From a bacterium (GTDB lineage Bacteria; Hydrothermota; Hydrothermia; UBA1063): a stretch of 64,000 nucleotides of DNA. The position numbers were made by a program, and so were the translations under genes. The DNA lies in NCBI GenBank assembly GCA_030019025.1, contig JASEFR010000003.1:19885-83884 (forward strand), given 5' to 3'. The notes beneath the pieces were generated by a model. That model searched no databases. It was not told the DNA's origin and was given only the letters and a program-made list of their open reading frames with translations. Shown one piece after another: positions 1,651 to 45,012 of this stretch (its first letter is position 1; each line of letters starts with the position of its first letter).

Positions 1651-2615
1651 ATTACTTTAGCCCTCATCAAGTCGTGTAAGTGGATTATTCCAATTGGTTT
1701 ATTCAAATCATCAACGACAATTAATGCGGTAATTCCATAATGTTCCATTTTTGAGGCAGCAGTAGCGGCAAGTTCGTCTTTTTTAATGGTTTTGGGGTTT
1801 GTTGTCATGACTTCTTTTGCTTTGAGATTAAATATATCTTGAGTTTTTTCCAGAAGTCTTCTGAGGTCTCCATCCGTTATAACACCTATGAGGACTCCAT
1901 CATCGTCCACTACACTGGTTATTCCACGTTTTTGAGTCATTTCAAGGATGACTTCTTTCATCGGTGAATCTTTGTGAACGATAGGGACATGCTGTGGACC
2001 AGTAAGCATCATATCTTCTACTTTAAGCCAGTATTTTTTTCCAATGGTTCCTCCAGGATGAAGTGTGGCAAGTTGTTCCAGTTTAAGACCTTTTAATTCA
2101 GCAAGAATTATTGCTATCGCGTCTCCAAGAGCCATCATTGCAGTTGTTGACGTTGTGGGGACTATGTTGTATGGACATGCTTCCTTTTCCACTTTTACTA
2201 GTATGATGATGTCTGATTGTCGTGCCAAATCGGAATTTGGGTTGGATGTCATTCCAATTACAGGGATGTTTATTCTTTTTACATATGGCAAAATTATGCT
2301 AAATTCTTCCGATTGCCCACTCTTTGATATTGCCAGGAATATATCATCCTTTTGGATCATTCCCAATTCTCCATGTAAAGACTCAGAGGGATGTAAGAAG
2401 ACGGAAGGAATTCCTACTCCATTAAGAGTTGAGGAGATTTTTCTTCCCACAATTCCAGATTTGCCGACTCCGGAGACGACTATTCTACCTTTGCACTGAA
2501 GGAGAAGAATTAAAGCACGGTAGAAATTCTCATCAAGTGAATCTCTAAGAGATTTTAAACCTTCAAGTTCGATATCAATTATTTCTTGAGCCCTTTTAAG
2601 TATTTTTTCTTTCAT
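1647..2615 (-). CDS. kdsD: arabinose-5-phosphate isomerase KdsD/KpsF (SIS domain + 2 CBS domains)
   Basis: SIS domain motifs (VSGVGKSG, HPSESLHGELG) and a C-terminal tandem CBS pair. The 322-aa length is typical of KdsD. Confidence 0.85.
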   Translation of the reverse strand: MKEKILKRAQEIIDIELEGLKSLRDSLDENFYRALILLLQCKGRIVVSGVGKSGIVGRKISSTLNGVGIPSVFLHPSESLHGELGMIQKDDIFLAISKSGQSEEFSIILPYVKRINIPVIGMTSNPNSDLARQSDIIILVKVEKEACPYNIVPTTSTTAMMALGDAIAIILAELKGLKLEQLATLHPGGTIGKKYWLKVEDMMLTGPQHVPIVHKDSPMKEVILEMTQKRGITSVVDDDGVLIGVITDGDLRRLLEKTQDIFNLKAKEVMTTNPKTIKKDELAATAASKMEHYGITALIVVDDLNKPIGIIHLHDLMRAKVI

Positions 2616-3148
2616 AAGGGTATTCTAACTATGCTTTTGTAAACTGGTCCAGAAGGTGTTAAAGTACTTTGAAAAACGGTTAAATGGGTGATTTCGAATT
2701 CCTTAGAGGTGTATTTCAGCCAGTCCTTATCTAAGGCGGTCGATGATTTTAATCTCCCAATAGTTACATGGGGAATGTACTCTTTTTCTCTTTCACCGAT
2801 TTTAAGAGTTTTTGCGACCTCCTCCAGAGAGCCCCACACTTTTTTTAATTTATCTACTTCACCCTGAACACCTAACCACATTACCCTTGGATGGCGGAAG
2901 TTCGGGAAGCAGCCAAAATTTGTAATTAAGATTCTAATCTTTTCGCCCTTTTTAAATTTTTTTTCGAGTCTTGAAAGAAGTTCCTGAAGTTGTTTTTCCG
3001 TTATTTCCCCAAGAAATTTGCACGTTATATGTAAGTTTTCTTTCTCAACCCACTTCACATTACTTAACAGGGCGCTTTTCTCGTTTATAATTTTGTAGAT
3101 TTCGCCCTTTATACTTTCAGGTAGGTCAAATGCAGTAAATACTCTCAT
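2612..3148 (-). CDS. thpR: RNA 2',3'-cyclic phosphodiesterase ThpR/LigT (2H phosphoesterase)
   Basis: Two H-x-T/S-x motifs (HITCKF and HVTIGR). The size is about 180 aa. The annotated ORF start (3184) would overlap the tRNA, so an internal Met (MRVFTAF) is proposed as the start. Confidence 0.75.
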   Translation of the reverse strand: MRVFTAFDLPESIKGEIYKIINEKSALLSNVKWVEKENLHITCKFLGEITEKQLQELLSRLEKKFKKGEKIRILITNFGCFPNFRHPRVMWLGVQGEVDKLKKVWGSLEEVAKTLKIGEREKEYIPHVTIGRLKSSTALDKDWLKYTSKEFEITHLTVFQSTLTPSGPVYKSIVRIPL

Positions 3149-3159
3149 ATATGCCTCTA

Positions 3160-3248
3160 CGGAGGGGGTGGGATTTGAACCCACGATCCCCTGTTAAGGG
3201 GATACACGATTTCGAATCGTGCGCCTTCAGCCGCTCGGCCACCCCTCC
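3160..3248 (-). tRNA. tRNA-Ser (anticodon CGA), long variable arm, CCA not encoded
   Basis: The reverse complement reads GGAGGGGTGGCCGAGCGGCTGAAGGCGCACGATTCGAAATCGTG...GGTTCAAATCCCACCCCCTCCG. It has a 7-bp acceptor stem and the anticodon loop TTCGAAA. The extra arm and TPsiC-like GGTTCAAATCC are present. Confidence 0.85.
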
Positions 3249-3351
3249 ATCAGTTAAATAAATATGAAGCCATATTTAAGTTTAATCAATTAAACTTTGC
3301 AGTGATTGGTGCTTTTATAAACGAGATTGGCACTATAATATTAAGAATGAG

Positions 3352-4206
3352 ATGAAAAAGAGGTTGGTTTTTGTTTTCTTGCTAAATTTACTTATCTCTC
3401 TTTCTGAAGTAATTGGTAGTATTTTTTCTGGTAGTTATTCTCTACTTTCGGATGCGTTGCATAATTTTCAGGATTCTCTGTCACAACTTTTTTCTTTAAT
3501 TGCGTTAATTCTGAGCGAAAAGGGAAGAACCAAGAAATTCACTTTTGGTTTTGCAAGATTTGAGATTCTTGCCGCTCTTATTAATGCCACGGTCGTATCT
3601 CTTTTAGCTCTTTTAATGATTGTTGGCGGTTTAAAAAGAGTTTTTAAGCCCCAAGAGATTAAACTTACCGTTCTAATTCCAGTTAGTATGATTGGATTGG
3701 TTGCGAATGCGCTCTCTTTGACATTACTTCATACTCATTCCAAGAAAAGCTTAAACATAAAGTCCACTTATCTTCATTTATTGGGCGATGCCCTTTCCTC
3801 AATTGGAGTAATAGTTGGTGGATTATTAATGCTCTTATTTAAAATATTCTGGATTGATGGAATAATAGCGGTCCTTATTGGAACGTTTATTCTTAAAGAA
3901 GGTGTTCAAGTAATAGTTGAGTCGCTGAGGATCTTCCTTCAGGCAGCACCTTTCACTGTGAATGAGAGTGAAATTTTTGATTTGTTAAAAGATATTCCGG
4001 GGGTAAAAGGAATTCACCACATTCATATCTGGAGTTTAAAAGACGGGAGAATTCATTTTGAGGCCCATTTAGAAGTGGATGATATGTATATATCACAATC
4101 AAAGGAGATTATAGAAAAGGTGAACCTCCGTCTGCGCGACAGGTTAAAAATCAGCCATTCCACATTGCAACTTGAAAGTGCAGACTGTATGAATAGAACA
4201 TGTTAG
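3352..4206 (+). CDS. cation diffusion facilitator family transporter (CzcD/ZitB-like)
   Basis: Six hydrophobic helices, a conserved H/D-rich TM2/TM5 pattern, and a C-terminal cytoplasmic domain with HHIHIW. Confidence 0.8.
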   Translation: MKKRLVFVFLLNLLISLSEVIGSIFSGSYSLLSDALHNFQDSLSQLFSLIALILSEKGRTKKFTFGFARFEILAALINATVVSLLALLMIVGGLKRVFKPQEIKLTVLIPVSMIGLVANALSLTLLHTHSKKSLNIKSTYLHLLGDALSSIGVIVGGLLMLLFKIFWIDGIIAVLIGTFILKEGVQVIVESLRIFLQAAPFTVNESEIFDLLKDIPGVKGIHHIHIWSLKDGRIHFEAHLEVDDMYISQSKEIIEKVNLRLRDRLKISHSTLQLESADCMNRTC

Positions 4207-4227: not shown

Positions 4228-4276
4228 TTGACTTTTCACTGTGTAATATATACAATTTAACGGGTACAATTTAAAC
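4228..4276 (+). promoter_or_regulatory. putative promoter/operator of the sbcD-sbcC-addA-addB operon
   Basis: TTGACT -35-like hexamer at about 4228-4233, with a TATATA/TATACA -10 candidate 13-15 nt downstream. The direct repeat TACAATTTAA(C/A) occurs twice (about 4251-4261 and 4265-4275). There is an imperfect LexA-box-like palindrome, CACTGTGTAATATATACAAT. Confidence 0.3.
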
Positions 4277-4279
4277 AGT

Positions 4280-5422
4280 ATGAAGATAGCTCATACCTCT
4301 GATCTTCACATCGATTCACAACATCAAGAAAGATGGGACGCTCTTCAAATTGTTCTGGAAAAAGCGGGGCAGGAAAAAGTAGACTATCTTGTTATTGCGG
4401 GAGATCTCTTTGATGATGTTGAAGCTGCAAGCGAATATATTACTAAACTGAGAAGGTACTTTTCAGGTTTAGGCTTTAAAGTGATAATGATTGCAGGTAA
4501 TCACGACTACAAATCCTTTGAAGATGAAAGGGATTTGGGTGACGATGTTATAGTTCTCTCCCGAAAAAACCCACTTTTCAAAGATGCTTCAAACGGGGTT
4601 TCCTTCTTCACTGTTCCGTATTTACAGGGTGTGGGAAATGAATATTTTTATGAACAGTTGGCTTATATTTCCAAGAATTTAGAAAGCACTGTTTTCAACA
4701 TTTTAGTTTATCATGGAGATCTTGATGAAGTTGTGAAAAAGGTGAGATACAGAAGGGAGGTTACAGGTGGTGAAGTGGAATCTGCCTTTTCCTTGTCTGT
4801 GAGAGTTTTGCAAAAGTTTCCCATGGTTCAACTTGTACTATCAGGCCATTATCACACCTATGGAGATCCGATCCCTATTGATGAAACTGGACGTTTTGTG
4901 GTTTATTCTGGCGCACCCGTTTCAATTACACGAGGCGACTTGGGACCAAGATATTTGGTGGTTTACGATGTAAACCGTGAAAGCAAAAGCGTTTCTGTAA
5001 GTAAGCTTCCCCTTGGTACTCTTTACTTCGAGAAGCTTGAAATACATTTGAGTCCGACGAGCGTAGAATCTATTGAGAATGTCGTTTTTTCAGGGATTCA
5101 GAATTCTCTCAAAGGGGACTCTGGCAAAATCTTGCTATTGCAGTTGAAAGGATATATTAATAGCCAAGAGCAGGGTATAAATGAGGTAAAGTTAAAAGAT
5201 ATTGTGAGAAGATATTGTGAAGAGAAATGGAAAGGGAGAGTCGTCCTACAAGAGGACTGGTTTGGAGTTCTGGACGTTGCCTTTCTTGTGGACAAACCTT
5301 TTAGTCGTAGTATTCTTGAGCAGATCGAACGTTTGGACTTACAGGAAGAGGACAAAAGAATCTTAAAGGAATGGTTTGTTTCAGCTCTCAGCAAGGTTTA
5401 TTCACAGAAGGTTAAAATATGA
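4280..5422 (+). CDS. sbcD: SbcD/Mre11-family nuclease (YhaO-like calcineurin-like phosphoesterase)
   Basis: Metallophosphoesterase motifs: DLH near the N-terminus, GDLFD, GNHD, and GHYH. The 4-nt overlap with the next gene indicates translational coupling. Confidence 0.8.
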   Translation: MKIAHTSDLHIDSQHQERWDALQIVLEKAGQEKVDYLVIAGDLFDDVEAASEYITKLRRYFSGLGFKVIMIAGNHDYKSFEDERDLGDDVIVLSRKNPLFKDASNGVSFFTVPYLQGVGNEYFYEQLAYISKNLESTVFNILVYHGDLDEVVKKVRYRREVTGGEVESAFSLSVRVLQKFPMVQLVLSGHYHTYGDPIPIDETGRFVVYSGAPVSITRGDLGPRYLVVYDVNRESKSVSVSKLPLGTLYFEKLEIHLSPTSVESIENVVFSGIQNSLKGDSGKILLLQLKGYINSQEQGINEVKLKDIVRRYCEEKWKGRVVLQEDWFGVLDVAFLVDKPFSRSILEQIERLDLQEEDKRILKEWFVSALSKVYSQKVKI

Positions 5423-7752
5423 AGATTAGACGAATTGAAATAAAAAATTTTGGACCGCTCAGTTTAAAAAATCCCATTGAGCCTGGGGATTTTACGCTTA
5501 TATGGGGACTTAATGAGAAGGGTAAGACTCTGGTTATAGAGGCTCTACTTAATAACCTGCCAATGGATGTAACTGAAAGAGGATTTGACAAGAAAGTTTT
5601 GAGAATTTTGGATAAGGAGGGAGTTTCTGTCGAAATTGAAGACGAAGGAAGGACATACAGTAAATCCCTGAACAGATTTTTAGATTTAAAACTAACAAAG
5701 AGTGATATTTATAATCTGTTTTTTGTATTGAACAGTTCCCTCATTTACACAAAGGACGAGGAAGTTTTCAGATCCGCTCTTGACAGGTTGAGCAGTACCT
5801 ACATTGATATTCTTCAGAGTGTGAAGAAAAAGCTTTTGGAAACTAATAAGTTAACAGAAACCCTCAGTTTAAAGAATACGCGGGATGAAGATTACCTTGC
5901 AGATCGTTACGAAAAAGCAAAGGAAACTTTAACGAAAATAGAAAGCCTTTTCAAAGAGATAGAAGAGAAGAGTTACGCTGAGCTGGAATACAAGGCAGGG
6001 GAGTTAAAGCGTGAACTCGAGAATATTATGAATATTGAAGAAAATTTAAAAAGAAAAAAGGCTGAGAAGATATTGGGAAGAACGGAAGAACTTATGAATC
6101 TCTATTTTGACTACAAAGCGCGGGCTGAGGCGTTCAAAAGCTATACAGAGGAAGCTTTGGAAAATTTAAGGAACCTTTACAAAGAACTTGAAAATGTTAA
6201 TAGAGAGATAGAGGTAGTTAAGGAGAAAGATCTAAAGTCTTTTGAAGAAAAAATTTTGGAACTTTCTCAAAAACTTGTTAATTTCGGCAAAGTTAAAAGT
6301 GAAATTCAAAGAATTGAGTTGACGGAGAAGCTTTTGGAGGAAAAGATAGTCAAGTACAGGATAATGTTACCTGACTATGAAAAGAACTTGAAGAAGAAAA
6401 AGTTAATGATTGTATTATTCAGTATTTCAGTACTTCTTTTTGTGGGTTTTTTAGGGAGTGCTACAGTTCTCAAAAATAACCTTTTATTTGGGGTGTCGTT
6501 ATTGTTTTTTGTTATTACCTCTGCCTTTCTCTATCTATATTCAAAATCACTTAACTTTGTAAAAGATTTTACCCTTTTAAAGTCCGAAATTTTTGATAGG
6601 GCAAGGAGTGTGGGATTTAAGTCAAATGAGGTTGACGAGCTGTTAGATGAACTGGAAAAGATCAAGCAGGAATTGATTGAAAAGGAGAAAGAATTGGAGG
6701 GTTTCAGACGAGAAAAAGAGACACTGGAAACTTTGAAGAGGAGTAAAGAAGATGAGCTCAAAAATTTGGAAGGAAAAAGAAACGAAATTAGAGCCAGAAT
6801 TGAGGTTGAAAGTGAAAAGTATGAAGTTAAGAATTTATCTGAATTTGAGGAAAAAGTGAAGGAGAGAAGAGATTATGAGAATAGAATGCGGGAATTTTTT
6901 AAAGAACTGGAGGGACTTTGGCACACTGAAATCGGTTCTTATAATGATGAAAATGACTTCTTTGTCAAGCTTCAGGAAGAGTTGAGAAAGCTGAGAGTCC
7001 GTAGTAGTGGAGAAGGAGAAGAGTACCATCACGAACTGCAAGATCTTGAGGCAATTGAAGAAAAAAGAAAGAAGCTGGCACAACTTAAAGAGGAAGTTGA
7101 CAAAAGACTTCTCAATTTACGGGATAATTTTGCAAAGATTGAAAGTGAGGTACAGCAAATCATTAAGAGCTCAGTACCTGTAAAGACGATAAGTGACCTT
7201 ATAGATTGCAAGAAAATTCTTGAGAATTTTATATATGAATTGGAAAAAAGAATGAGGCTTAGTAAGGTTTTGGTTGATATTTTGGATAAAGAAATTGAGG
7301 GGAGCAAAAACAGATTTAATGATCTATTTAGCGACTTAACGCAAACATCCGAATTTTTTGAACGAATAACTGGTGGAAGATATAAAGTTATACTATACGA
7401 TCAGGAGAAGAGGACTATAAAAGTTGAGGATAAAAAGGGGAATGTCATAGAAATCTCTAAACTTTCAGGTGGTACAATTGATCAGTTATTTTTTGCCATA
7501 AGGCTTGGCCTCGGAATTAAAGTTTTAGAGGGGAGAAAAGGATTTTTTGTTTTTGACGACCCGTTCATTAAAAGTGACTCCGAAAGGCTGAAAAGGGAAT
7601 TGGATCTGCTTGTGGAAATTTCAAAAGACGGGTGGCAGATTTTGTATTTCAGTTGTAAGGATGAGGTTAAAGATTATTTACTAAGAAATTATGCAGATTA
7701 TGTAAAATTTGTGGATCTTAATGAAAATTCAAGTCTTGCACACGAAATTTGA
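5419..7752 (+). CDS. sbcC: SbcC/Rad50-family ATPase with long coiled coil and central transmembrane hairpin (YhaN-like)
   Basis: N-terminal Walker A (WGLNEKGKT). The central part is extremely K/E-rich heptad-like sequence. The C-terminus has the LSGG signature (ISKLSGGTIDQ) and Walker B/D-loop (FFVFDDPF). There is no CxxC zinc hook. Instead there are two hydrophobic helices (LMIVLFSISVLLFVGFLGS...LLFGVSLLFFVITSAFLYLY) at about nt 6406-6545. Confidence 0.75.
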   Translation: MKIRRIEIKNFGPLSLKNPIEPGDFTLIWGLNEKGKTLVIEALLNNLPMDVTERGFDKKVLRILDKEGVSVEIEDEGRTYSKSLNRFLDLKLTKSDIYNLFFVLNSSLIYTKDEEVFRSALDRLSSTYIDILQSVKKKLLETNKLTETLSLKNTRDEDYLADRYEKAKETLTKIESLFKEIEEKSYAELEYKAGELKRELENIMNIEENLKRKKAEKILGRTEELMNLYFDYKARAEAFKSYTEEALENLRNLYKELENVNREIEVVKEKDLKSFEEKILELSQKLVNFGKVKSEIQRIELTEKLLEEKIVKYRIMLPDYEKNLKKKKLMIVLFSISVLLFVGFLGSATVLKNNLLFGVSLLFFVITSAFLYLYSKSLNFVKDFTLLKSEIFDRARSVGFKSNEVDELLDELEKIKQELIEKEKELEGFRREKETLETLKRSKEDELKNLEGKRNEIRARIEVESEKYEVKNLSEFEEKVKERRDYENRMREFFKELEGLWHTEIGSYNDENDFFVKLQEELRKLRVRSSGEGEEYHHELQDLEAIEEKRKKLAQLKEEVDKRLLNLRDNFAKIESEVQQIIKSSVPVKTISDLIDCKKILENFIYELEKRMRLSKVLVDILDKEIEGSKNRFNDLFSDLTQTSEFFERITGGRYKVILYDQEKRTIKVEDKKGNVIEISKLSGGTIDQLFFAIRLGLGIKVLEGRKGFFVFDDPFIKSDSERLKRELDLLVEISKDGWQILYFSCKDEVKDYLLRNYADYVKFVDLNENSSLAHEI

Positions 7753-10700
7753 AATTTTACCTCTTTGAGATGAGTAAAAATCCTGAATTGGGGTCTCTAA
7801 TTTTAAAGAAGCCCCAAGAAGCACCATTCATTGTTGTTCCCACTTCTGCTGGGTCCGGAAAGACCGAACTCCTTGCAAAGAGATTGGTATTTTTATTACT
7901 TTCAGAGTGTAATTCAAAGAATGACCTTAGGAAGTTCCTTGCTATCACCTTTACCAGAGAGGCTGCCAAGGAGATGAAGAGGAGAGTAGTTGAAATCCTT
8001 GGTGAGTTGAGGAAGGGCAATTTTGATAGATTCCCGGGCTTGGAAGAAATTTTTAAGGATAAATTGGCGGAGAGAGTAGGTAAAGTATATGACATTGTTC
8101 TTGAAAATTATCCTCGTCTTAGAATTGGAACTATTGATAGTTTTATGGAAAGGCTTAGACGTCTTCTCCTCCACGAACTGGGATTGAAATTTACTTTGAA
8201 AGTCCACTATGAAGTTGATGTGGAGGTATTAAATCTTGCGATAGAGAATCTGTTAAGGTCATCTAATCTATTTTCAGATTTCTTAAAGATTGTCGTTGAA
8301 CTTGCTAAAGATAGTGAAAGATTCGAATGGGATCTATTGAAGGCCTTTAATGAAAGGATAATTAAACTAAAAAGTGCGGAGGATAGGTTACTTTATGATT
8401 TGAAGCCTCATCCTCTCTTTGCTTCCATTCAATGGGAAGACCGTAAAATTGGTGAGGAAATTGCGAGGCTTCAAAATAGTATTCCAAATGTTAGGAAAAA
8501 AATGAATGAAAATGATAGTTTCCTGCAGCTACTGGAGTTCTTGGCAAGAGGAAATAATGCATATAGTTTTTCGAATATATTGTTAGGTAAAGCTGATTTG
8601 TATGAAAGGGTATTCAGGGGGCTGTTGTGTGCCTTTGGGGCTTATAATAAACTGGAGACAAAGATTGCAGAATTTTATGAAAGTTTTTATAAGCCTGAGT
8701 ACAGAAGGATACTCAATACCATGGGAATTATCACCATCTCCGATACCAGTAGGATAATGAGAGATTACATGTTAAACCCCGAAAACTACTGTGATAGGTT
8801 AATAAATTTTCTTTATGGTATAAATCATATTTTGATCGACGAATTTCAAGATACAGACCCACAGCAGTGGGAGATCTTGCTTTACTTAATAAAGGAACAT
8901 GTTCTTAGCTCAGGGGGAACACTATTTATTGTTGGAGATATTAAACAAGCTATATACGGTTTTAGAAAAGCGGATTACAAAATTATGTATAGCCTACTTA
9001 GCCAGGACGGTTACAAAAGATATGGACTTAATATGCCTCCCTTTGTTCCTGAGATTAACGACAGAAATTTTAGGAGTTCAGAGGCTATAGTAAAGTTCGT
9101 AAATGATGTTGTCTTCAAAGAGGATGCTTTCGAGTCTTTTCTCCAGAACGAAGTTAAGAATTTGCTTGAAGGCGTCATCTCTAAGCAAAAGGCAGAAGTT
9201 AAGGCCCAAAAGATAGTGGAGCGGTATCGAAACATTTGGATACCGATTAGACAAGTTGCGCAAAAAAAAGAGATAGGATATGTCAAAAATATTAAAATAC
9301 CTAAAACCGAAGGGGTAAGAAGTAAAAAAGAGAAACTTGACAAGATTCTCCCGTATATTAAAGAATTGATAACAGAACTACTCGGCGAGTTTACCCCAGG
9401 CGAGATCACAGTGATGGCGAGAGACAATGACATGGTTCTCCAAATAGCCAGCTTCATTGAAAGAGAATTGGCTCAGCCCGTAATTTGTTTTTCCTCTCTT
9501 GACATTAGGAGTCATAAAATATTGTGGGAGTTAATATCTCTGGTTAAATTCTTGATTGATGAAAAGGATTTAAAGTCTGCCTTCGTATTTGCTACAGGTA
9601 CCATAGCTCAAAAAGCGGTTGGAAAGGATACAGTAGAGCTTACACGCGATTTTTATGAGTTTGTATTTAGAAGGTTTGAGGCTGACAATGAGCTTACTCG
9701 ACTATTTAAGAGCTTGAAGGAAAAATATTCAAAATTTTATGAGAAAAAGTCTCTTGCAAGGCTATTTTCTGAATTATTATGCGGGTTTGAATTTTTGAAT
9801 GAGGATAGCTCGCGAGGTGCTATTTTGAGGTTTCTGAATTTTCTTTTTAATAGTGAATTAAGGGAAGGATATATCACAGTCGACAAAGTAGAGGAAATTT
9901 TTAATCAGTTTCTTGATAGTATGAGTAATTCTCAAGCTGAGGATTTATCTATACCACAAAAAACGGAAATAAATGCCATAAAAGTGATGACTTTTCATAA
10001 ATCTAAAGGGCTTGGATTTCCAGTTGTGATAAACGTTTTCATTGACTCGAAAGGCGGGGGCAATGACCTTTATTTTGACAAAGAACATAAAGAAAGATTG
10101 CTTTATCCTTTTAAAATGAAGAAAGATTACTTAAAGATTATTGATAGTGGATTGCTAAATAATGAACATACCAAGCGTATGATGGAAAGATACATTGAGG
10201 AGAAAATTGACGAGCTCGTACAGGAGATAAACACGATCTATGTTGCTCTCACAAGGGCTAAGAAGAGGTTGTATAATATTTATATGGAAGATACTTACTT
10301 CAAACGCTTGGTCGAAGCTGGGAAAGCTGATGAAAGGGTTTATGGTGAAATAATAAAGGAGAAGAAAGAACCGTTAATCGAAAGTTCAGAACCTCCTTTA
10401 ATAACCTTTTATAGAAGGAAAAATCTACCAAAGGTCTTTATTGAACCACGTCGTGAGGAATTTCAAACCACCGACTTGATTTCGCGATTGAAAGCAAGTT
10501 GGGTAGGAGATGCTGTGCATGAATTCCTTCGCACTATCGATTTTATAGAAATGCCAGAAGAACTTATAAAATACAGAGATAGGATGGTGGCTATCGCTGA
10601 CAAGTATTATATCGATTCATTTACAGCTGAAAAGATTCTGGGCGTTTTGGTGGACTTTTTTTCCAGAGATGGTAGAATTAAAATACTGTCCAATAGACAG

Positions 10701-10952
10701 GGGGGTGAACTCTACAGAGAGAGGGAAATAGGATTAATTGATGGAAGTTTTGAAAGAATTGACCGACTGATTGTTGGTAAAGATTTTGTGGAGGTAATTG
10801 ATTTTAAAACGGGGGAACCTAAAGAAGAGGATATAAAGCAAGTAAAGGGTTATATTAAGGTTTTGAAAAAGATTTTTACCGCTCACGAAATTAAAGGGTA
10901 CCTTGCTTATGTGTTTAATGATCAATTGAAGGAAGTGAGTGATGAGGAGTGA
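7749..10952 (+). CDS. addA: ATP-dependent helicase/nuclease subunit A (AddA/RecB-like UvrD-family helicase + PD-(D/E)xK nuclease)
   Basis: Helicase motifs I (SAGSGKT), Ia (ITFTREAAKEM), II (IDEFQDTD), III (VGDIKQAIYGFR), V (KGLGFPVV) and VI (VALTRAKKRL). The C-terminal nuclease motif GLIDGSFERIDRL...VEVIDFKTG is of RecB/AddA type. Confidence 0.8.
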   Translation: MKFYLFEMSKNPELGSLILKKPQEAPFIVVPTSAGSGKTELLAKRLVFLLLSECNSKNDLRKFLAITFTREAAKEMKRRVVEILGELRKGNFDRFPGLEEIFKDKLAERVGKVYDIVLENYPRLRIGTIDSFMERLRRLLLHELGLKFTLKVHYEVDVEVLNLAIENLLRSSNLFSDFLKIVVELAKDSERFEWDLLKAFNERIIKLKSAEDRLLYDLKPHPLFASIQWEDRKIGEEIARLQNSIPNVRKKMNENDSFLQLLEFLARGNNAYSFSNILLGKADLYERVFRGLLCAFGAYNKLETKIAEFYESFYKPEYRRILNTMGIITISDTSRIMRDYMLNPENYCDRLINFLYGINHILIDEFQDTDPQQWEILLYLIKEHVLSSGGTLFIVGDIKQAIYGFRKADYKIMYSLLSQDGYKRYGLNMPPFVPEINDRNFRSSEAIVKFVNDVVFKEDAFESFLQNEVKNLLEGVISKQKAEVKAQKIVERYRNIWIPIRQVAQKKEIGYVKNIKIPKTEGVRSKKEKLDKILPYIKELITELLGEFTPGEITVMARDNDMVLQIASFIERELAQPVICFSSLDIRSHKILWELISLVKFLIDEKDLKSAFVFATGTIAQKAVGKDTVELTRDFYEFVFRRFEADNELTRLFKSLKEKYSKFYEKKSLARLFSELLCGFEFLNEDSSRGAILRFLNFLFNSELREGYITVDKVEEIFNQFLDSMSNSQAEDLSIPQKTEINAIKVMTFHKSKGLGFPVVINVFIDSKGGGNDLYFDKEHKERLLYPFKMKKDYLKIIDSGLLNNEHTKRMMERYIEEKIDELVQEINTIYVALTRAKKRLYNIYMEDTYFKRLVEAGKADERVYGEIIKEKKEPLIESSEPPLITFYRRKNLPKVFIEPRREEFQTTDLISRLKASWVGDAVHEFLRTIDFIEMPEELIKYRDRMVAIADKYYIDSFTAEKILGVLVDFFSRDGRIKILSNRQGGELYREREIGLIDGSFERIDRLIVGKDFVEVIDFKTGEPKEEDIKQVKGYIKVLKKIFTAHEIKGYLAYVFNDQLKEVSDEE

Positions 10953-13833
10953 AAAAATTATTTTACTTGAGCCAAAGAATTTTCTCTCGAATCTTGCAGG
11001 ATATATTGTTGATAAATGTGAAGCGGGTGAGAAAATTGAAAACTTCATTTTTATTATGCCTAATAGGCGTTCCGGTGTGTATCTGAGATACTTCATCACT
11101 CAGAGAATCGGTAAACCAGTTGTTTTACCTATGATCTTTTCTATTGATGATTTCGTTGATTATCACTATGAAAACTTTATTAAGAGGGATAAAAAACTGA
11201 ATGAACCAGATGCCCTGTATGTCCTGTACGATCTCTATAAGGATTATCTTGATACAATGGTTTTCTGGGATTTTGTATCTCTCGGGAAAAGGATTTACAA
11301 CGATTTTGAAGAACTCAAGATTTATAGAAGGACGAAAGAAGAGATTCAAGCGGTATTAACGCACTTAGATCTGCCTGAAAACTCAAGGACCAGAATTTTG
11401 CTTGAGAATTACCCTGCAGTATACGAGACGTTCTATGACACCATTAATAAAAATGGGTTTTCTACCCGTTCTACGAGGTATTTCCTTACTGCTGAAAAGA
11501 TTGATTTGGAAAGGGATTATAAAGATTTTAGTGTGGTTATGTGTCTTCCCTTTCTTTTGACTGAGAGTGAAAAGTTATTTATTAATAGGGCGTTAGATTC
11601 TGAAAATTTCACGCTGGTTTTACAAGACTCTAAGTTTGCATTGGATGAATTTAGAAATCAATTTGGAGAGGATTTGTTTCCTTTAGCAGTTTCAACAGAG
11701 CACCCCTTGCTTCCTCAAGATTTGAGGGTTGAATTGATACCCACAGATGATGATATTTCCGAGATATACTTAGTTGCAGATAAACTGGCGAATGCCAATG
11801 TAAAAGAATTGAATTCTATTGATACAGCTATTATTTTGCCCGACTCTTCAAAGTTGGTTCCATTGTTAGAATTTGCGATTCCTGAAGGGGTAGATTTCAA
11901 TGTATCTATGGGGTATCCTGTTAAGTTAACGGGGTATTTTACTTTTTTCAAAGATTTACTGGAACTTTTGAACTTCACTCAGTATGACTCAGAAACTGAT
12001 TCGTGTTTAATTAATGTCAAAAAGCTAAAGAACTTTCTTGAAAGAAATTTTCAAAGCGAAGGCGTTAGCGATATCTTACAGTTTTTAAAAATTCTCGGGT
12101 CCTCAGGGTATTCGTTGATAAGTGACAAAATGACGCCTTTTTTAGTTGACAAGCTTATATTGAACGATGAAGATTCTAAGAAAAGAATGAAAGAATTTTG
12201 GGAAAACTTTTTAAAGGAATTTTGGATTCCAATTTTTTCTTATAAAACTTTTGCAGGTTTTGTAGATTTTCTGATAGATTTTCTCGGGAAAAAGGAAGGC
12301 AAAAGTTTGTCTCTCAATGTGGGTGAAGACATTGAAGGACTTCGGCAAAGCCTTTTAGAAGAATTGTTTGTTTTAAGAAACTCTTTGCTTTCGAACATTA
12401 CACAAGATCCTTCCAATGACAAAGTTGAAAATTTAAAAAATTTTGTCAGATTTGTTTTAGACTTCACTGAATATCTTTCGATTCCGTTGAAAGGTACACC
12501 CCTTAAGGGTCTCCAAGTCATTGGATTTCTGGAGACCCGACTTTTAAGCTTCAAAAGGGTAATTATAATTGACGTTCAGGAAGGAGTGTTAACACGAAAT
12601 TTTGAATATGATACTCTTCTCCCTTATGACTTGAGAGTAAAACTTAGAATTGATGATTTAGATTCTAAGAATAGACTCTCCCAATATCTTTTTTTCACCC
12701 TTCTACAGTCTTCAAAAGATTGCACGGTTATTTACAAAGACTCCAATTTTGATGAACCTTCACATTTAATTTTGATTTTGAAAGAGTATCTTGCACGGGA
12801 TGGGCGAGAAGTGGGATCAACTTCTCACAGGAGTTATTACACTCTTATTTCCACAGGGGGAGAAAGAAGATTCAACTTCGAAGATGGAATTAAAAAGAAC
12901 GCCAATATGCTTGAGAAATTGAAGAGAATTACTTATTCCTATACCCACTTGGAGACTTATCTCGAATGTCCAGTAAAGTTTGCTCTTACCTATGTTTATG
13001 GCCTTAAAGAGGACATACAGGATGAATACGATAGGAGAATTATAGGGACCGTTATTCACGAAGTATTACAGAGGTTCTTTTCCGCTCTTGATGGAAAATT
13101 CAAAGGAGATGATTTTGAAAAAAGAGGATTTTTTGAGGTTTCTTCTAAGGTTCTGGAGGAGGAATATCCAATTGAAACTCCCAGAATAAAAATTCTGAAG
13201 ACTGCAATTACCGAGAGATTGTGGATTTCTTTATCAAAGTTGCAAGGAAGACTGGAGGAAGAGATTAAAAAAAATGAACTCGGTGAGTTCGTTAAATATT
13301 ACACAGAAAAGGAACTTAATGCAACGGTAGAACTTGAAGAAGGAATTAGACTTAACTTTACAGGAAAAATTGACAGAATAGATATCTTCTCAAATGGAGT
13401 CATAATTATAGATTATAAAAGCGGTAGCTCCTTTCGGGATTACGAGAAAGGAGACAACCTGGTGGGTTTGTCTGAACGGTTGAAAAATCCAGGTGTCTTT
13501 GTGTCCGAAATTATTACAAAGCCTAAGATTCAGCTTCTTGTGTACCTTTGGCTGTTTAAAAATTCAAAGCTTGAGTTTGTTGAGCTCAACGGAGGCAGGG
13601 TTTATGCAACTATTTTCCCATTGTTAGGACTTAGTTCTAAGAGCCAATTTGAATTAATTGACCTTTCACAAAAAGAGGTTTATGTGGAAACTGATGTGCT
13701 AATCAAATCGTTGTTACATGAAATTCTTAACCCAGAGATAGATTTTTACTTACCATCAAACAAAAAAGAACTTTTAACAAGGTGCAGAAATTGCCCATTT
13801 AAGGTTGCTTGTAATACGTACATTATGCTGTAA
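10939..13833 (+). CDS. addB: ATP-dependent helicase/nuclease subunit B (AddB-like; degenerate Walker A, RecB-type nuclease with Fe-S cysteines)
   Basis: The C-terminal nuclease motif is GKIDRIDIFSNGVIIIDYKSG. The cysteine arrangement is typical of the AddB iron-sulfur staple: YLECPVKF upstream and CRNCPFKVAC (C-x2-C-x5-C) at the extreme C-terminus. The N-terminal P-loop is degenerate (MPNRRSG). The 14-nt overlap with addA indicates coupling. Confidence 0.75.
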   Translation: MMRSEKIILLEPKNFLSNLAGYIVDKCEAGEKIENFIFIMPNRRSGVYLRYFITQRIGKPVVLPMIFSIDDFVDYHYENFIKRDKKLNEPDALYVLYDLYKDYLDTMVFWDFVSLGKRIYNDFEELKIYRRTKEEIQAVLTHLDLPENSRTRILLENYPAVYETFYDTINKNGFSTRSTRYFLTAEKIDLERDYKDFSVVMCLPFLLTESEKLFINRALDSENFTLVLQDSKFALDEFRNQFGEDLFPLAVSTEHPLLPQDLRVELIPTDDDISEIYLVADKLANANVKELNSIDTAIILPDSSKLVPLLEFAIPEGVDFNVSMGYPVKLTGYFTFFKDLLELLNFTQYDSETDSCLINVKKLKNFLERNFQSEGVSDILQFLKILGSSGYSLISDKMTPFLVDKLILNDEDSKKRMKEFWENFLKEFWIPIFSYKTFAGFVDFLIDFLGKKEGKSLSLNVGEDIEGLRQSLLEELFVLRNSLLSNITQDPSNDKVENLKNFVRFVLDFTEYLSIPLKGTPLKGLQVIGFLETRLLSFKRVIIIDVQEGVLTRNFEYDTLLPYDLRVKLRIDDLDSKNRLSQYLFFTLLQSSKDCTVIYKDSNFDEPSHLILILKEYLARDGREVGSTSHRSYYTLISTGGERRFNFEDGIKKNANMLEKLKRITYSYTHLETYLECPVKFALTYVYGLKEDIQDEYDRRIIGTVIHEVLQRFFSALDGKFKGDDFEKRGFFEVSSKVLEEEYPIETPRIKILKTAITERLWISLSKLQGRLEEEIKKNELGEFVKYYTEKELNATVELEEGIRLNFTGKIDRIDIFSNGVIIIDYKSGSSFRDYEKGDNLVGLSERLKNPGVFVSEIITKPKIQLLVYLWLFKNSKLEFVELNGGRVYATIFPLLGLSSKSQFELIDLSQKEVYVETDVLIKSLLHEILNPEIDFYLPSNKKELLTRCRNCPFKVACNTYIML

Positions 13834-13899
13834 AATCTTTTTTAGAGGGAGGAGAGGATGTGGTTGTTGTTACCCTTTTTAGTAATTTGGGAGGTAAGG

Positions 13900-14481
13900 A
13901 TGATTAAACTTCCTGAGCCGAGAAGGGATAGTAATTTTTCTTTGGAGAAGGCAATTAATGAAAGGAGATCGGTAAGGACTTATAAAGATTCTTCCCTAAC
14001 TCTGAAAGAAGTGGCTCAACTTCTCTGGGCAGCCCAGGGCAAGGTTAAGAGTGGAAAGAGGGCAACCCCTTCTGCGGGCGCGACCTATCCCATGGAGATT
14101 TATCTTATCGCAGGTAAAGTAGAGAATTTAGAACCAGGGCTTTATAAGTATAATCATGATGAGCATTCTCTGCAACTCGTGAAAGCGGGTGATCTTAGAA
14201 GGGAAGTTTCTGAAAGAGCACTCAGACAGGATATGATTTTGAAAGCGCCAGTTACAATTGTAGTCTCAGCGGTTTTCGGAAGAACGAGGGCACGATATGG
14301 GGCAAGAGCGGAAAGGTACGTGTATATGGAAGCTGGTCACATTGGTCAGAATATATACTTACAGGCAACGGCACTGGGCCTCGGCACTGTGGCTGTGGGA
14401 GCCTTTATCGATGAAGAAGTTAAAAGGGTCCTTGGTATAAAAGAGGAACCTTTGTATCTATTCCCCGTCGGATGGAAGTAG
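13900..14481 (+). CDS. SagB-type dehydrogenase / nitroreductase-family protein
   Basis: Nitroreductase-fold motifs (RRSVRTY, TPSAGATYPMEIY, EAGHIGQN). The start was moved to MIKLPEP, which is preceded by a GGAGGT RBS. Confidence 0.6.
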   Translation: MIKLPEPRRDSNFSLEKAINERRSVRTYKDSSLTLKEVAQLLWAAQGKVKSGKRATPSAGATYPMEIYLIAGKVENLEPGLYKYNHDEHSLQLVKAGDLRREVSERALRQDMILKAPVTIVVSAVFGRTRARYGARAERYVYMEAGHIGQNIYLQATALGLGTVAVGAFIDEEVKRVLGIKEEPLYLFPVGWK

Positions 14482-14543
14482 GGTAGGGTTTGTTAATATG
14501 CAATAATAACAGAACATTAAGGCGTGCAGAGGAGGTTTGTGAA

Positions 14544-14873
14544 ATGATTAGATTTTCCTACATTCTTATATTGCTTTTAGGCCTATTTGCTCTTTCTTGC
14601 GAAAGAGATCAACTAACGGTAGAATATGTTGTATCAGGAAAGTCTTCAAGTGCATACACTATTACATTTGTCTCAAATGCGGCTGGTGAAACTTCTGCAA
14701 TTATAAATGCTTCCCTCCCGTGGAATTATGCCTTTACTGCTGATAGAGGTGATACCGTTTATATTAGTGCATGGAGTTCTGATTCCGTAAAAGTTCAAAT
14801 TTTTGTTGATGGTGACCTTAAAGCAGAAGATTGGGATGATAATGTTGCCGAAGCCCGCTGCGTAGTTGAGTAA
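14544..14873 (+). CDS. small lipoprotein, hypothetical
   Basis: Signal peptide plus lipobox (LFALSC). A GAGGAGG RBS sits 7 nt upstream of this internal ATG. No other motif recognised. Confidence 0.4.
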   Translation: MIRFSYILILLLGLFALSCERDQLTVEYVVSGKSSSAYTITFVSNAAGETSAIINASLPWNYAFTADRGDTVYISAWSSDSVKVQIFVDGDLKAEDWDDNVAEARCVVE

Positions 14874-14898: not shown

Positions 14899-16332
14899 TC
14901 ATTCTTTCGTATATCTTACTTTGGATAGTTTAACCGCCAGTGCGTCGTCCAGTCTCTTTACCGGTGTGGTATGAGGAGCGGTTTTCAGGATTTCAGGGTT
15001 TTTCTCTGCTTCTTCTTTTATTTGAAGCAAGACTTCTACAAATTTATCAAGTGTTTCCTTGTTTTCAGTCTCTGTTGGCTCAATCATTATCGCTTCAGGC
15101 ACAATTAGAGGGAAATAAATTGTCGGTGCATGCATGCCAAAATCCAGAATTCTTTTTGCAATATCCAGTGTCCTTACCCCATATTTTTTGAATTCCTTAC
15201 CAGACAATACAAATTCGTGCATGCAGGTGCTCTTGTAAGGTAGTTCGTAATGGTCCATTAGTTTCTTTCTTAGATAGTTGGCATTCAAAACGGCGTCTTC
15301 GCTAACTTTCTTTATATATTCCCGACCAAGCATTCTGATGTAGGTGTAAGCCCTTATTAAAACAAGGAAGTTTCCATAAAATGAGTGAATTTTCCCTATG
15401 GAATCTGGGTAGTTATAATCTAATTCATACCCACCATTTATTTCTACTATTCTTGGCACGGGAAGATAAGGCTCTAAGAATTTTTTCACACCTATAGGAC
15501 CACTCCCTGGACCTCCTCCACCGTGAGGAGTAGAAAAGGTCTTGTGTAAGTTAAAATGCATTACGTCAAATCCGAGGTCTCCCGGTCTTATGTGCCCTAT
15601 GAAAGCATTTAAATTGGCACCATCCATGTACATTAGACCACCCACTGAGTGAACCAGGTCAGAAATTTCGTGGATTCTATTTTCAAAAATTCCAAGGGTA
15701 TTTGGATTTGTTACCATAAAGCCTGCTACTTCTTCATTCAGGTGTTTTTTCAGGTCCTCAACGTCAATTCTCCCGGTCTCATCGGATTTTATTGTGATAG
15801 CTTGATAACCAGATAGAGTAGTGGACGCAGGATTGGTTCCATGAGCCGAGTCTGGTATCAAAATATATTTTCTCGGATTTCCTTTCTTCTCGTGGTACTT
15901 TCTAATTATTTTTATACCAGAATATTCACCATGAGCCCCTGCTGCTGGCTGAAGGGAAATAGCATCCATACCACTAATTTCGGCTAATAAATATTCCAGT
16001 TCTTTCATTAGTTTCAATGCACCTTGAACGGTTTGGGGTGGTTGCAATGGATGAAGATGGGTAAAACCTGGAAGGTTTGCAGTATGTTCGTTAACTTTGG
16101 GATTGTATTTCATTGTGCAGGAGCCAAGTGGGTAAAATCCTTTATCAACATGATGATTTAGTGTAGATAATGCAATAAAATGCCTTACAACCTCATTCTC
16201 TGCCAGCTCGGGAAGTTTTGGTTCCTCTTTTCTCATATATTTTTCAGGGATAGAGATATTTGCGGTTTTTTCAAACTTTTTAATTGTGAAACCGGTTTTT
16301 CCGGGCTTTGAAATTTCAAAAATTAGTTCCAT
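14899..16332 (-). CDS. gcvPB: glycine dehydrogenase (decarboxylating) subunit 2 (glycine cleavage P-protein, C-terminal subunit)
   Basis: PLP-lysine region HFNLHKTFSTPHGGGGPGSGP, which is highly characteristic. The 477-aa length is typical. Confidence 0.9.
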   Translation of the reverse strand: MELIFEISKPGKTGFTIKKFEKTANISIPEKYMRKEEPKLPELAENEVVRHFIALSTLNHHVDKGFYPLGSCTMKYNPKVNEHTANLPGFTHLHPLQPPQTVQGALKLMKELEYLLAEISGMDAISLQPAAGAHGEYSGIKIIRKYHEKKGNPRKYILIPDSAHGTNPASTTLSGYQAITIKSDETGRIDVEDLKKHLNEEVAGFMVTNPNTLGIFENRIHEISDLVHSVGGLMYMDGANLNAFIGHIRPGDLGFDVMHFNLHKTFSTPHGGGGPGSGPIGVKKFLEPYLPVPRIVEINGGYELDYNYPDSIGKIHSFYGNFLVLIRAYTYIRMLGREYIKKVSEDAVLNANYLRKKLMDHYELPYKSTCMHEFVLSGKEFKKYGVRTLDIAKRILDFGMHAPTIYFPLIVPEAIMIEPTETENKETLDKFVEVLLQIKEEAEKNPEILKTAPHTTPVKRLDDALAVKLSKVRYTKE

Positions 16333-20246: not shown

Positions 20247-20869
20247 GGAAGTTGATTTTAACTATAAAACAGAAAGCCGTTCTTGATTTTATACAGCAGT
20301 TTATACTTACTCATGGGTATCCACCCACAATTAGAGAGATTGCTGAGGGATTAAATCTTGGATTGAACAGTATATACAGCATTCAGAGGCATTTAAAAGC
20401 TCTGGAAGATAAAGGCTTCATAAAAAGAAATCCCAGAAAACCAAGAGGAATTGAACTTTTACATTTTAAGCTTTCAAATGCAGCTATGATACCCCTCGTG
20501 GGAAAGGTATCAGCAGGATTTCCAATTCCTGCTATAGAAGAGGTTGAGGGTAATGTGGTGTTTGATACACTTTTTATAAGGGACGCTAACAATACGATAG
20601 CTTTGAGAGTAAAGGGTGATAGCATGATAGGCGCAGGGATTTACGACCGAGATATTGTTGTGGTAAGACTTGGAGCAGTTATAAAAAATGGTGATATTGT
20701 GATTGCTTTTGTGGATAATGAAGTTACGTGTAAACGTTTTAAGGAAGTTAACGAGTTTGTATACCTTATACCCGAAAATCCGGCGTATAGAGAAATAAAG
20801 TTAAGAAAAGAGGAAGCCAGGCTTTATATTCTTGGGAAAGTGATTGCGCTTTTTAGGAGGTTAGAATAA
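20243..20869 (+). CDS. lexA: LexA repressor (S24 peptidase)
   Basis: N-terminal winged HTH, an AG-like cleavage region (VSAGFP), Ser nucleophile in GDSM and the Lys in the KR motif. The 4-nt overlap with the permease gene indicates co-transcription. Confidence 0.85.
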   Translation: MRKLILTIKQKAVLDFIQQFILTHGYPPTIREIAEGLNLGLNSIYSIQRHLKALEDKGFIKRNPRKPRGIELLHFKLSNAAMIPLVGKVSAGFPIPAIEEVEGNVVFDTLFIRDANNTIALRVKGDSMIGAGIYDRDIVVVRLGAVIKNGDIVIAFVDNEVTCKRFKEVNEFVYLIPENPAYREIKLRKEEARLYILGKVIALFRRLE

Positions 20870-21372
20870 TGCCTGACATTTTACAGATTTTTTCGGACTA
20901 TTTTTTGAGAAAAATTGACGAATCGGAAGTGGGCGAATTCAAAATTAAAATACCTCAGGATTTAATTGAATACGTTTTAAAGTTTTACCTTCAACCTTAC
21001 CTTGCAGAAATGAAAGTCAGTTTTTCTGAGAAGGGTTTGGAAATAGAGGGGACCAATATCTTTCCCGTTTGTTTAAAACTACAAATAGGTGAGGTACGAT
21101 GGGACAAAGAGCAAAAAGTGGTGGAATTTCAACTTAATGTTTCTGATCTTGTTTACAACTTCATACGGTCCCCTTTGCAACTGTTGAAAGAAAGAACAAA
21201 AGAGATAATAACTGTAAATAATAAGGAGATCTTTATTAATTTCGAAAGACTATTTAGCCTGAAGCCCCAGTGGAACAGCATTACTTTTGCTCTGCGAAAT
21301 AAAGTAAGGTTAATCAATATCAGGTTTATAAATGGCTACCTTGAATTAGTTTTTGAGAGAGTTAAGCCTTAA
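20869..21372 (+). CDS. hypothetical soluble protein, translationally coupled to lexA (TAATG)
   Basis: 167-aa ORF with no TM and no recognised motif. The lexA stop and this start overlap. Confidence 0.45.
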   Translation: MPDILQIFSDYFLRKIDESEVGEFKIKIPQDLIEYVLKFYLQPYLAEMKVSFSEKGLEIEGTNIFPVCLKLQIGEVRWDKEQKVVEFQLNVSDLVYNFIRSPLQLLKERTKEIITVNNKEIFINFERLFSLKPQWNSITFALRNKVRLINIRFINGYLELVFERVKP

Positions 21373-34087: not shown

Positions 34088-34146
34088 TTTAGTAAATAAC
34101 AAATCTATTGTATAACGTCTTTCCGAAATAAGCAAATCAAAAGCAA

Positions 34147-34183
34147 AATTAATGCATTTGCTGGTGCTATTTGGACGCATTAA
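34147..34183. promoter_or_regulatory. inverted repeat in divergent promoter region between cyclase-STAND operon and DUF1573 gene
   Basis: TTAATGC ... GCATTAA arms separated by ~21 nt, including the palindromic AATGCATT, in the 105-nt intergenic region 34088-34192. Confidence 0.25.
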
Positions 34184-44078: not shown

Positions 44079-45012
44079 GTATGTACTTTTCAAAGACTTG
44101 TTTCGCCTTTTGGCCGATGAAGAAGATGTTGAATTAGTTAGTAAAGTTGAAGAATTTGAAAGGATTAGAGTTTTTGAGAGAAGGCTAATAGAATTTCCTG
44201 AATTTTTTAAATCTAAGGAAGGCACTAAAAAAAGTGGTTTACTTTTTTGGACTCGTGATACCGCTTCTCTTTTAAATCAAAAGGAAAAATTAGATGAACT
44301 GATTCAGGGAGTAAATAGTGGTAAAATCACGGGGCTAATTGTAGATAATTCCACTTACAACGAGATTTTTGGAAGAATGGGGAGTCTGGCTAACAAGTTG
44401 CCTATCATTGTATATAAGGGCAATGAGATCGACTATTTTAAAAGTAGAGTTAACTCTCACCTAGCCTTTTGTTTCTCCCCTTACTCAATCTGTCACGGTA
44501 GTGCTGTTGAGGTATTTGGAGAAGGTGTCCTTGTAATTGGCAAATCAGGCAGTGGAAAATCCGAATGTGTACTTGAACTTATTGAGCGCGGTCATCTCTT
44601 TATTGCAGACGACCTTGTAAAGTTAGTCAACTACCCGCCTACATCTATTCTTCTGATGTCGGGTTCTCAGAGTGAGAATTTCAAATTTTTTATGGAGTTG
44701 AGAGGAATAGGTATAATTGATGTTCTAAGGACTTTTGGACCAGCGAGGGTTAAAGTTAAAGGAGAACTTACGATGGTTGTTGAAATAACTTCTCAGGAGT
44801 CAGAGAAAGGATCCTACACAGAAAATCGGAGTGTTCAATTATTCGGAAAAAAAGTGCCGTTTCTTTCTTTTTCCGTGAAAGAAAGGGGATTGATACCTAC
44901 CAGAATTGAGACTTCCGTCCTAAAATATAAACTTAAAAAATTCGGTTTTGAAGCTGATCGAGTGATTAAAAGGGTACTTGGAGGGGGACGTGATAAAGAA
45001 GCTCCCAGATGA
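44047..45012 (+). CDS. hprK: HPr kinase/phosphorylase
   Basis: Walker A GKSGSGKSE, followed by the LELIERGHLFIADD signature and the capping motif. Confidence 0.85.
   Translation: MKKSFKIEEPEYVLFKDLFRLLADEEDVELVSKVEEFERIRVFERRLIEFPEFFKSKEGTKKSGLLFWTRDTASLLNQKEKLDELIQGVNSGKITGLIVDNSTYNEIFGRMGSLANKLPIIVYKGNEIDYFKSRVNSHLAFCFSPYSICHGSAVEVFGEGVLVIGKSGSGKSECVLELIERGHLFIADDLVKLVNYPPTSILLMSGSQSENFKFFMELRGIGIIDVLRTFGPARVKVKGELTMVVEITSQESEKGSYTENRSVQLFGKKVPFLSFSVKERGLIPTRIETSVLKYKLKKFGFEADRVIKRVLGGGRDKEAPR

Follow-up and report, generated by a model that had tools for sequence, protein, structure and literature searches.

Canonical Rad50/SbcC ATPases carry a zinc hook (CxxC) at the apex of their coiled coil. 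Precedents for joining an Mre11/Rad50-type pair to the resection machinery in one operon are the addB-addA-sbcD-sbcC operon of Bacillus subtilis and the archaeal herA-mre11-rad50-nurA operon, and in B. subtilis the yhaONM and addBA-sbcDC genes are separate loci. Here we have analyzed a window of 64,000 nucleotides, i.e., the whole stretch of DNA a part of which is given above (from contig JASEFR010000003.1), which belongs to an uncultured hot-spring bacterium of the Hydrothermia/WOR-3 group (Caldifarciminota) and in which the genes of an Mre11/Rad50-type pair are directly followed by addA and addB (positions 4280-13833, + strand). The B. subtilis SbcE protein (YhaN) has no CxxC, its central domain is hydrophobic and insoluble in E. 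coli, and its gene follows that of the SbcD-like protein YhaO, or SbcF (PMC2811018). Both SbcE and SbcF were assigned to double-strand break (DSB) repair and to transformation, upstream of RecA; they gather at the pole of competent cells, and the loss of SbcE leads to a mildly lower transformation (PMC2811018). That work, from 2009, did not treat SbcE as a membrane protein, and it was the one experimental paper found when the literature on membrane-anchored Rad50/SMC-like proteins, SbcE/SbcF and AAA_27 was searched.

The pair encoded in the window resembles B. subtilis SbcE/SbcF in that the ATPase lacks CxxC, has a hydrophobic central element and is encoded directly after an SbcD-like phosphoesterase, but the ATPase is 777 rather than 963 aa long, no yhaM-like gene lies downstream, and addAB follows in this clade. 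With SbcCD/Mre11-Rad50 it shares the head motifs, the antiparallel coiled coil and the adjacent Mre11-type nuclease, and Rad50 is its best relative by both sequence and fold; in contrast, a pair of transmembrane-grade helices takes the place of the zinc hook, and the arms, of which the N-terminal one has ~140-170 residues, are shorter. As in the B. subtilis and archaeal operons mentioned above, an end-processing pair shares its operon with an end-resecting helicase-nuclease, although here the pair comes first, addA precedes addB, and the Rad50-like subunit is of the (predicted) anchored type and not a hook-bearing SbcC. The operon is thus a lineage-specific variant assembled from known kinds of parts. 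We consider it fairly probable that it serves the processing of chromosomal DSB ends, by a membrane-anchored SbcF/SbcE-like complex together with AddAB.

The Mre11/Rad50-type pair and its hydrophobic hairpin

The genes of the operon, and the two segments of the ATPase on which the argument depends, are as follows:

4280-5422, + strand: sbcD/sbcF(yhaO)-like gene for an Mre11-type metallophosphoesterase of 380 aa (Pfam Metallophos, 2e-17; NCBI MDI6850562.1, "metallophosphoesterase")
5419-7752, + strand: gene for a YhaN/SbcE-like ABC ATPase of the Rad50/SMC type (777 aa), whose start overlaps the sbcD stop (NCBI MDI6850563.1, "hypothetical protein")
6403-6471, + strand: predicted transmembrane helix 1 of the ATPase, aa 329-351, LMIVLFSISVLLFVGFLGSATVL, with KKKK just before it
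6481-6543, + strand: predicted transmembrane helix 2 of the ATPase, aa 355-375, LLFGVSLLFFVITSAFLYLYS, with the 3-residue turn KNN just before it
7770-10952, + strand: addA-type gene for an SF1 (UvrD-like) helicase with a C-terminal RecB-type nuclease, 1060 aa (NCBI MDI6850564.1, "UvrD-helicase domain-containing protein")
10942-13833, + strand: addB-type gene for a PD-(D/E)XK nuclease with an Fe-S "staple", 963 aa (NCBI MDI6850565.1, "PD-(D/E)XK nuclease family protein", 100% identical)

The product of gene 1 is a calcineurin-type phosphoesterase. A preliminary description of this stretch had claimed intact SbcD phosphoesterase motifs, and motifs I-V could all be read (DLH8, GDLF41, GNHD73, H145 and GHYH189); with the sbcd subfamily model the protein scored 2.9e-13, under the cut-off of that model. 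As with canonical Rad50/SbcC proteins, the gene of an Mre11/SbcD nuclease, here gene 1, is adjacent to that of the ATPase, which it overlaps at ATGA. In the product of gene 2, the ATPase motifs are split between the two termini, and the Walker A, LSGG signature and Walker B motifs described before were located at G30LNEKGKT37, L682SGGT and F709FVFDD714, respectively. The C-terminal lobe was found to be similar to Pyrococcus Rad50 in a search against PDB sequences (3e-4). When an AlphaFold2 (AF2) model of the ATPase was compared with solved structures by Foldseek, the closest fold was that of Rad50 (7zr1, 1.8e-11), followed by Smc5/6, MukB and JetC. The heads lie in this model on either side of a long helical hairpin.

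According to the preliminary description, the zinc hook was absent from the SbcC-like ATPase and two hydrophobic segments occupied the apex of its coiled coil, and both points were confirmed. The only cysteines of the protein are Cys597 and Cys746, so that CxxC is absent, and the segments at aa 329-351 and 355-375 (23 and 21 residues), which contain no charged residue, are membrane-grade both by hydropathy and on the Hessa scale. The Kyte-Doolittle means over 19 residues were 2.5 for helix 1 and 2.35 for helix 2. Their summed free energies on the Hessa scale were -1.94 and -2.07, respectively, to be compared with -1.97 for the most favourable helix of a genuine transporter, the CDF protein whose gene lies just upstream of the operon in the window, and with minima of +6.6 to +9.9 for SbcD, AddA and AddB. 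The hydrophobic moment was 0.20 for helix 1 and 0.67 for helix 2, compared with 0.9-1.5 for the flanking coiled-coil stretches; such low moments indicate that the helices lack the polar face that a soluble bundle would require. In the AF2 model a helix spanning residues 244-351 is joined by a two-residue turn to a helix spanning residues 354-397 (pLDDT ~80), and the hydrophobic helices form the tip of the antiparallel arm.

Relatives of the ATPase are encoded in 353 species-representative genomes of bacteria and archaea, and loci were compared for the best 80 of these genomes plus metagenome contigs (86 loci in the survey of the hairpin, 81 in that of the neighbours). A hydrophobic block, with a median length of 50 aa and its centre at 0.457 +/- 0.008 of the protein length, was observed in all 86 loci (82 distinct proteins), and CxxC was found at the apex in none of the 86 homologues. 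The sequence of the block is poorly conserved among the homologues, while its length and hydrophobicity are retained. In addition, K/R residues are enriched in its two flanks (3.2 and 3.0 per 12 aa, versus a background of 2.0, in the 82 distinct homologues), which would match a positive-inside topology that leaves both flanks cytoplasmic. The hairpin had been regarded as a peculiarity of this operon, and this did not hold: all 82 distinct homologues carry one at an equal relative position, so that it is a hallmark of the family rather than of this locus. From these sequence properties, the insertion of the hairpin into the membrane is strongly predicted.

The same residues could be read in another way, i.e., as a soluble dimerization element in which a four-helix bundle made by two hairpins would replace the zinc hook. 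Rad50 dimerizes at its apex, foci of SbcE-YFP were seen on the nucleoids of B. subtilis (PMC2811018), and the insolubility in E. coli, the single biochemical observation, would be equally expected of an aggregating soluble domain (PMC2811018). We nevertheless regard such a bundle as highly improbable, because the 23 and 21 uncharged residues have the insertion scores of a real transmembrane helix and a hydrophobic moment near zero, which leaves no polar face for such a bundle, because hydrophobicity and length have been conserved in 82 homologues despite the poor conservation of the sequence, and because the flanks are of the positive-inside type.

The AF2 model also shows a difference between the arms: the C-terminal one (aa 376-638) exceeds the N-terminal one (aa 160-328) by ~95 residues, and it is made up of five helices that are interrupted around residues 398-404, 468-472, 501-510, 530-542 and 583-590. 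The model suggests that an additional helical sub-domain is likely to be present around residues 473-582. This putative sub-domain carries an EGLWH motif, which is conserved across the Hydrothermia clade.

The ATPase family in bacteria and archaea

A search of representative proteins with a profile of the family gave 17,251 matches at E<=1e-3, of which 569 reached E<=1e-30; E was below 1e-138 for each of the top 150, and 137 of these were 750-820 aa long. Among the best 80 genomes, the bacterial carriers belong to Hydrothermia/WOR-3, Calditrichota, Chloroflexota, Thermotogota, Spirochaetota, Bacillota and Thermodesulfobacteriota, and the archaeal ones to Bathyarchaeia, Thermoplasmatota and a Loki-type metagenome-assembled genome (MAG). 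A cultured carrier of the pair is Fervidobacterium islandicum H-21 (Thermotogota; locus L079). In 77 of the 80 genome loci the ATPase gene is immediately preceded by an SbcD-like gene; the other three have almost no sequence on that side of it.

The preliminary description had placed the ATPase with YhaN. Matches to PF13514 (AAA_27) at E<=1e-3 were obtained with 31 of 48 members of the family of the window protein (best 1e-10), and an hhalign comparison with longer PF13514-bearing proteins, which share the central hairpin, gave E 7e-29 over the C-terminal head. Hence, Pfam and profile comparison support a YhaN/SbcE (PF13514) type at the level of the family. Membership of the Firmicutes YhaN group itself did not stand: the window protein is a member of a short (~775-aa), pan-prokaryotic subfamily and not of the 963-aa Firmicutes YhaN. 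A subset of ~890-aa proteins was also noticed (L062 and L077, and the profile matches P0035, P0040, P0124, P0140, P0148 and P0157), in which the hairpin is located at aa 380-430. These proteins match the profile in three stretches, which points to an insertion of ~115 aa before the hairpin.

Gene order and the link to AddAB

The identities given before to the four genes (sbcD, sbcC-like, addA and addB) were borne out by Pfam domains and motifs. AddA matches UvrD-helicase (2e-34), UvrD_C and, weakly, PDDEXK_1 in Pfam, and shows the motifs AGSGKT (34-39), DEFQD (364), ERIDRL and IDFKT (1017). Its best NCBIfam model was the "RecB-like helicase" PRK13909 (1.9e-66); the addA and recB models also match, all of them under their cut-offs. 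AddB matches PDDEXK_1 (2.4e-28), and the addB_Gpos and addB_alphas models at ~4e-10, under the cut-off; it has the nuclease motifs GKIDR (809) and IDYKS (824), the Fe-S ligands Cys677 and C949-x2-C952-x5-C958, and an inactive helicase-like N-terminal part that lacks Walker A. None of the NCBIfam equivalog cut-offs (addA_Gpos, addA_alphas, addB_Gpos, addB_alphas and PRK13909) was reached, with for instance 224.9 versus 650 bits and 38 versus 904 bits. Scores so far under the AddA, AddB and SbcD equivalog cut-offs indicate that the proteins are divergent members of these families. AddAB of the epsilonproteobacterial kind (PRK13909) is alike in that AddA has a single SF1 motor and a RecB nuclease, and AddB a RecB nuclease and a four-Cys Fe-S staple, but the proteins of the window represent a divergent lineage whose equivalog scores lie well under the cut-off, and their AddB lacks Walker A.

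That the gene order would be kept in relatives was then confirmed within the Hydrothermia/WOR-3 clade, where the four-gene block persists even at an identity of 42% for the ATPase and 38% for AddB. In the ATPase-based search, AddA and AddB follow the pair in L007 (90% identity), L008 and L010 (51%), L009 (43%), L045 (42%) and the metagenome contigs L001-L003, and an AddB-based search found the same four-gene order in L087 and L088 (38% AddB identity). At least 3 kb of sequence downstream of the ATPase gene was available in 55 of the 81 loci; AddA follows in five of these, all from the Hydrothermia/WOR-3 clade. In L001 the block is preceded by a V-ATPase operon, and in the window by a CDF transporter gene. 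Since the upstream neighbours vary and the four-gene order is constant, the block stays together. As judged from these gene orders, the AddAB linkage is a fusion of two otherwise independent modules in a single lineage, Hydrothermia/WOR-3.

The junctions between the genes were compared as well. When the longest open reading frames (ORFs) were taken, the four coordinates and the + strand orientation of the preliminary description were re-derived (4280-5422, 5419-7752, 7749-10952 and 10939-13833; n=4, co-directional). Of the overlaps of 4, 4 and 14 nt claimed for them, the first stood: the ATGA overlap of sbcD and sbcE is real, and a comparison of starts among relatives showed that it is also kept in L007, L008 and L010. 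The second is a gap of 17 nt. The TTG start of addA at 7749 was rejected, as the 90%-identical relative does not have it; the start that is conserved is the ATG at 7770, where the 1060-aa NCBI product also begins. The third overlap is likelier to be 11 nt; the GTG at 10939 was rejected for the conserved ATG at 10942, which on this comparison is most likely the start of addB, and in three more distant relatives (L008, L010 and L045) addA and addB overlap by 8 nt. The second and third overlaps of the earlier account arose because the longest possible ORFs had been taken. Hence, the genes overlap at two of the three junctions and are merely close-spaced at the other, and coupling by overlaps is not uniform.

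In the mechanism that we propose, the phosphoesterase nuclease (Mn) would bind the ABC-ATPase heads, and the coiled-coil arms would end in a helical hairpin and not in a zinc hook. The two helices of the hairpin would span the cytoplasmic membrane, their 3-residue turn facing outwards and both ends remaining in the cytoplasm, and with the hairpin so placed the heads and the nuclease would hang ~20 nm below the membrane. Held in the membrane and confined to two dimensions, the hairpins would replace the hook in keeping the two arms together. AddAB, from genes 3 and 4, would contribute a single motor and two nucleases of the RecB type, and its AddB subunit would carry an Fe-S cluster. The anchored complex would clamp DNA ends at the membrane and open or trim those that are blocked, and AddAB would next load on the clean end and resect it for RecA. 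The membrane insertion, the dimerization of the hairpins and the hand-over to AddAB are what we infer, and the cooperation with AddAB is suggested by the conserved gene order and by analogy with the Bacillus and archaeal operons.

Several observations weigh against this mechanism. The AF2 model of the ATPase derives from a 9-sequence alignment and has a pLDDT of 76 and a pTM of 0.42, and for every member of the family insertion is a prediction made from hydropathy, flank charge and AF2. Taken alone, the window protein gave 16.7 bits with PF13514, for which the cut-off is 22. In B. subtilis, what was reported for SbcE-YFP is dynamic foci, located on nucleoids and at the poles of the cell, and not a stain of the membrane rim (PMC2811018). 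As for the gene order, AddA follows the pair in none of the loci outside the Hydrothermia/WOR-3 clade that have at least 3 kb of downstream sequence, the next-nearest AddB relatives (25-26% identity) are encoded by AddA-AddB alone, without the pair, and the gap between sbcE and addA is variable in relatives, at roughly 20-60 nt. The pair and AddAB being apart wherever else they were examined, the two halves clearly work separately, and their adjacency may reflect co-regulation only.

In the extreme, this would be an operon of convenience, i.e., two independent repair modules co-transcribed in one lineage with neither physical nor sequential cooperation. The separation of the modules in every other lineage examined, the variable spacing without overlap between sbcE and addA, and the lack of a recurrent third partner in the wider family would all agree with it; among the 81 loci no recurrent third gene was detected beside the pair, the largest same-position cluster comprising 5 loci. 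However, the order persists between proteins of only 38-42% identity and despite a changing upstream flank, and the B. subtilis addB-addA-sbcD-sbcC and archaeal herA-mre11-rad50-nurA operons are two independent, established precedents, so that we give this explanation very little probability.

A general-type pair (28-30% identity) was also observed in MAGs labelled Hydrothermota/WOR-3, in L012 (Candidatus Hydrothermota B29_G16), L024, L049 and L064 (WOR-3). No AddAB follows it in L024 and L049, which are the ones with downstream sequence, and this indicates either that the fusion is limited to a subclade or that two paralogous versions exist in the phylum.

Genomic setting and the source of the DNA ends

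The features that flank the operon are the following:

4228-4256, + strand: sigma-70-like promoter candidate, TTGACT-17-TACAAT (10/12 consensus positions), in the 73-nt gap upstream of gene 1
13858-14481, + strand: SagB/nitroreductase-family gene (NCBIfam TIGR03605, 6e-40)

Scans of the region for promoters and terminators gave no more sites than shuffled sequence, and the site at 4228-4256 is suggestive by its position only. No terminator-like site was found in the scan between 13290 and 14994, and none separates addB from the nitroreductase gene. The nitroreductase gene begins 24 nt past addB when its longest ORF is taken, or 66 nt when the better ATG at 13900 is used. It lies directly after addB in L088 and 7 kb downstream in L087, and it is not found after addB in L001. 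It is possibly co-transcribed with the operon, and it is probably not a component of the end-processing machine. Between this gene and the convergent gene at 14899-16332 there is an ORF of 127 aa (14490-14873, + strand), for which the NCBIfam search gave no family match; it contains an internal Met followed by a lipoprotein-like signal, MIRFSYILILLLGLFALSC. In L088 a LexA gene was noticed at 20571-20904, ~8.7 kb downstream of addB.

On the other side of the operon, a block encoding SIS/CBS, a LigT/ThpR 2',3'-cyclic phosphodiesterase and the CDF cation-efflux transporter is present in the window (2612-4206), in L087 (1-2197) and in L088 (1-1923), and a tRNA-Ser(CGA) gene lies on the minus strand of the window at 3159-3249. 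Core genes of the window are those for LepA, AspRS, MutL, the PolX-PHP polymerase and transketolase. Two of them are further repair genes, the family-X polymerase with a PHP domain (25719-27482, + strand) and MutL (44978-46657, + strand), which are 12 kb and 31 kb off the operon and have no obvious link to it. A protein of 1225 aa (30503-34180, - strand) begins with a zinc ribbon and also contains TPR repeats and two catalytic-type domains, namely an adenylate/guanylate cyclase and a STAND-type ATPase (AAA_16).

The DNA ends on which the complex would act need not be chromosomal. The same proteins could act mainly on phage, plasmid or transforming DNA that comes in as a linear end at the membrane, where the anchor would hold the nuclease-ATPase, and which AddAB would then degrade or process, as part of a defence or uptake module. 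AddAB/RecBCD degrade linear foreign DNA. SMC-like ATPases paired with nucleases are common in defence, and weak matches to LmuB and JetC were obtained; the Foldseek matches, too, include structures of Lamassu and JetABC. A role in incoming DNA at the envelope would also fit the Bacillus competence data, i.e., the presence of SbcE/SbcF at the competence pole and the mild effect of SbcE loss on transformation (PMC2811018). Against this, the PADLOC matches (LmuB, 3.5e-7; JetC, 4e-5; GajB, through the UvrD fold) are at the superfamily level only, and Lamassu, Wadjet and Gabija were each rejected as a known defence system, with no LmuA, JetABD or GajA partners. No restriction, toxin or mobile-element genes adjoin the operon, and the synteny with core genes is maintained across a deep clade, unlike in a variable defence island. 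We therefore consider a module devoted mainly to incoming DNA unlikely, and favour the processing of chromosomal DSB ends by the anchored pair and AddAB.

The main value of the operon is as a functional clue for a neglected ATPase family. Among the loci examined, its linkage to AddAB is the sole informative clue that the neighbourhood gives to the role of this family, and the hairpin is a constant feature of a very large and little-studied family present in both prokaryotic domains. We propose, tentatively and at a little less than even confidence, that the ~775-aa ATPase and its phosphoesterase represent a pan-prokaryotic, membrane-anchored Mre11/Rad50 paralogue, unstudied as a membrane complex, and that the operon is the first genomic evidence of its feeding DNA ends to a resection enzyme. 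The hypothesis that follows can be tested, namely that a membrane-anchored end-processing complex acts upstream of AddAB. If it is true, there would be a spatially distinct, membrane-proximal pathway of end processing, for chromosomal breaks at the envelope or for incoming DNA.

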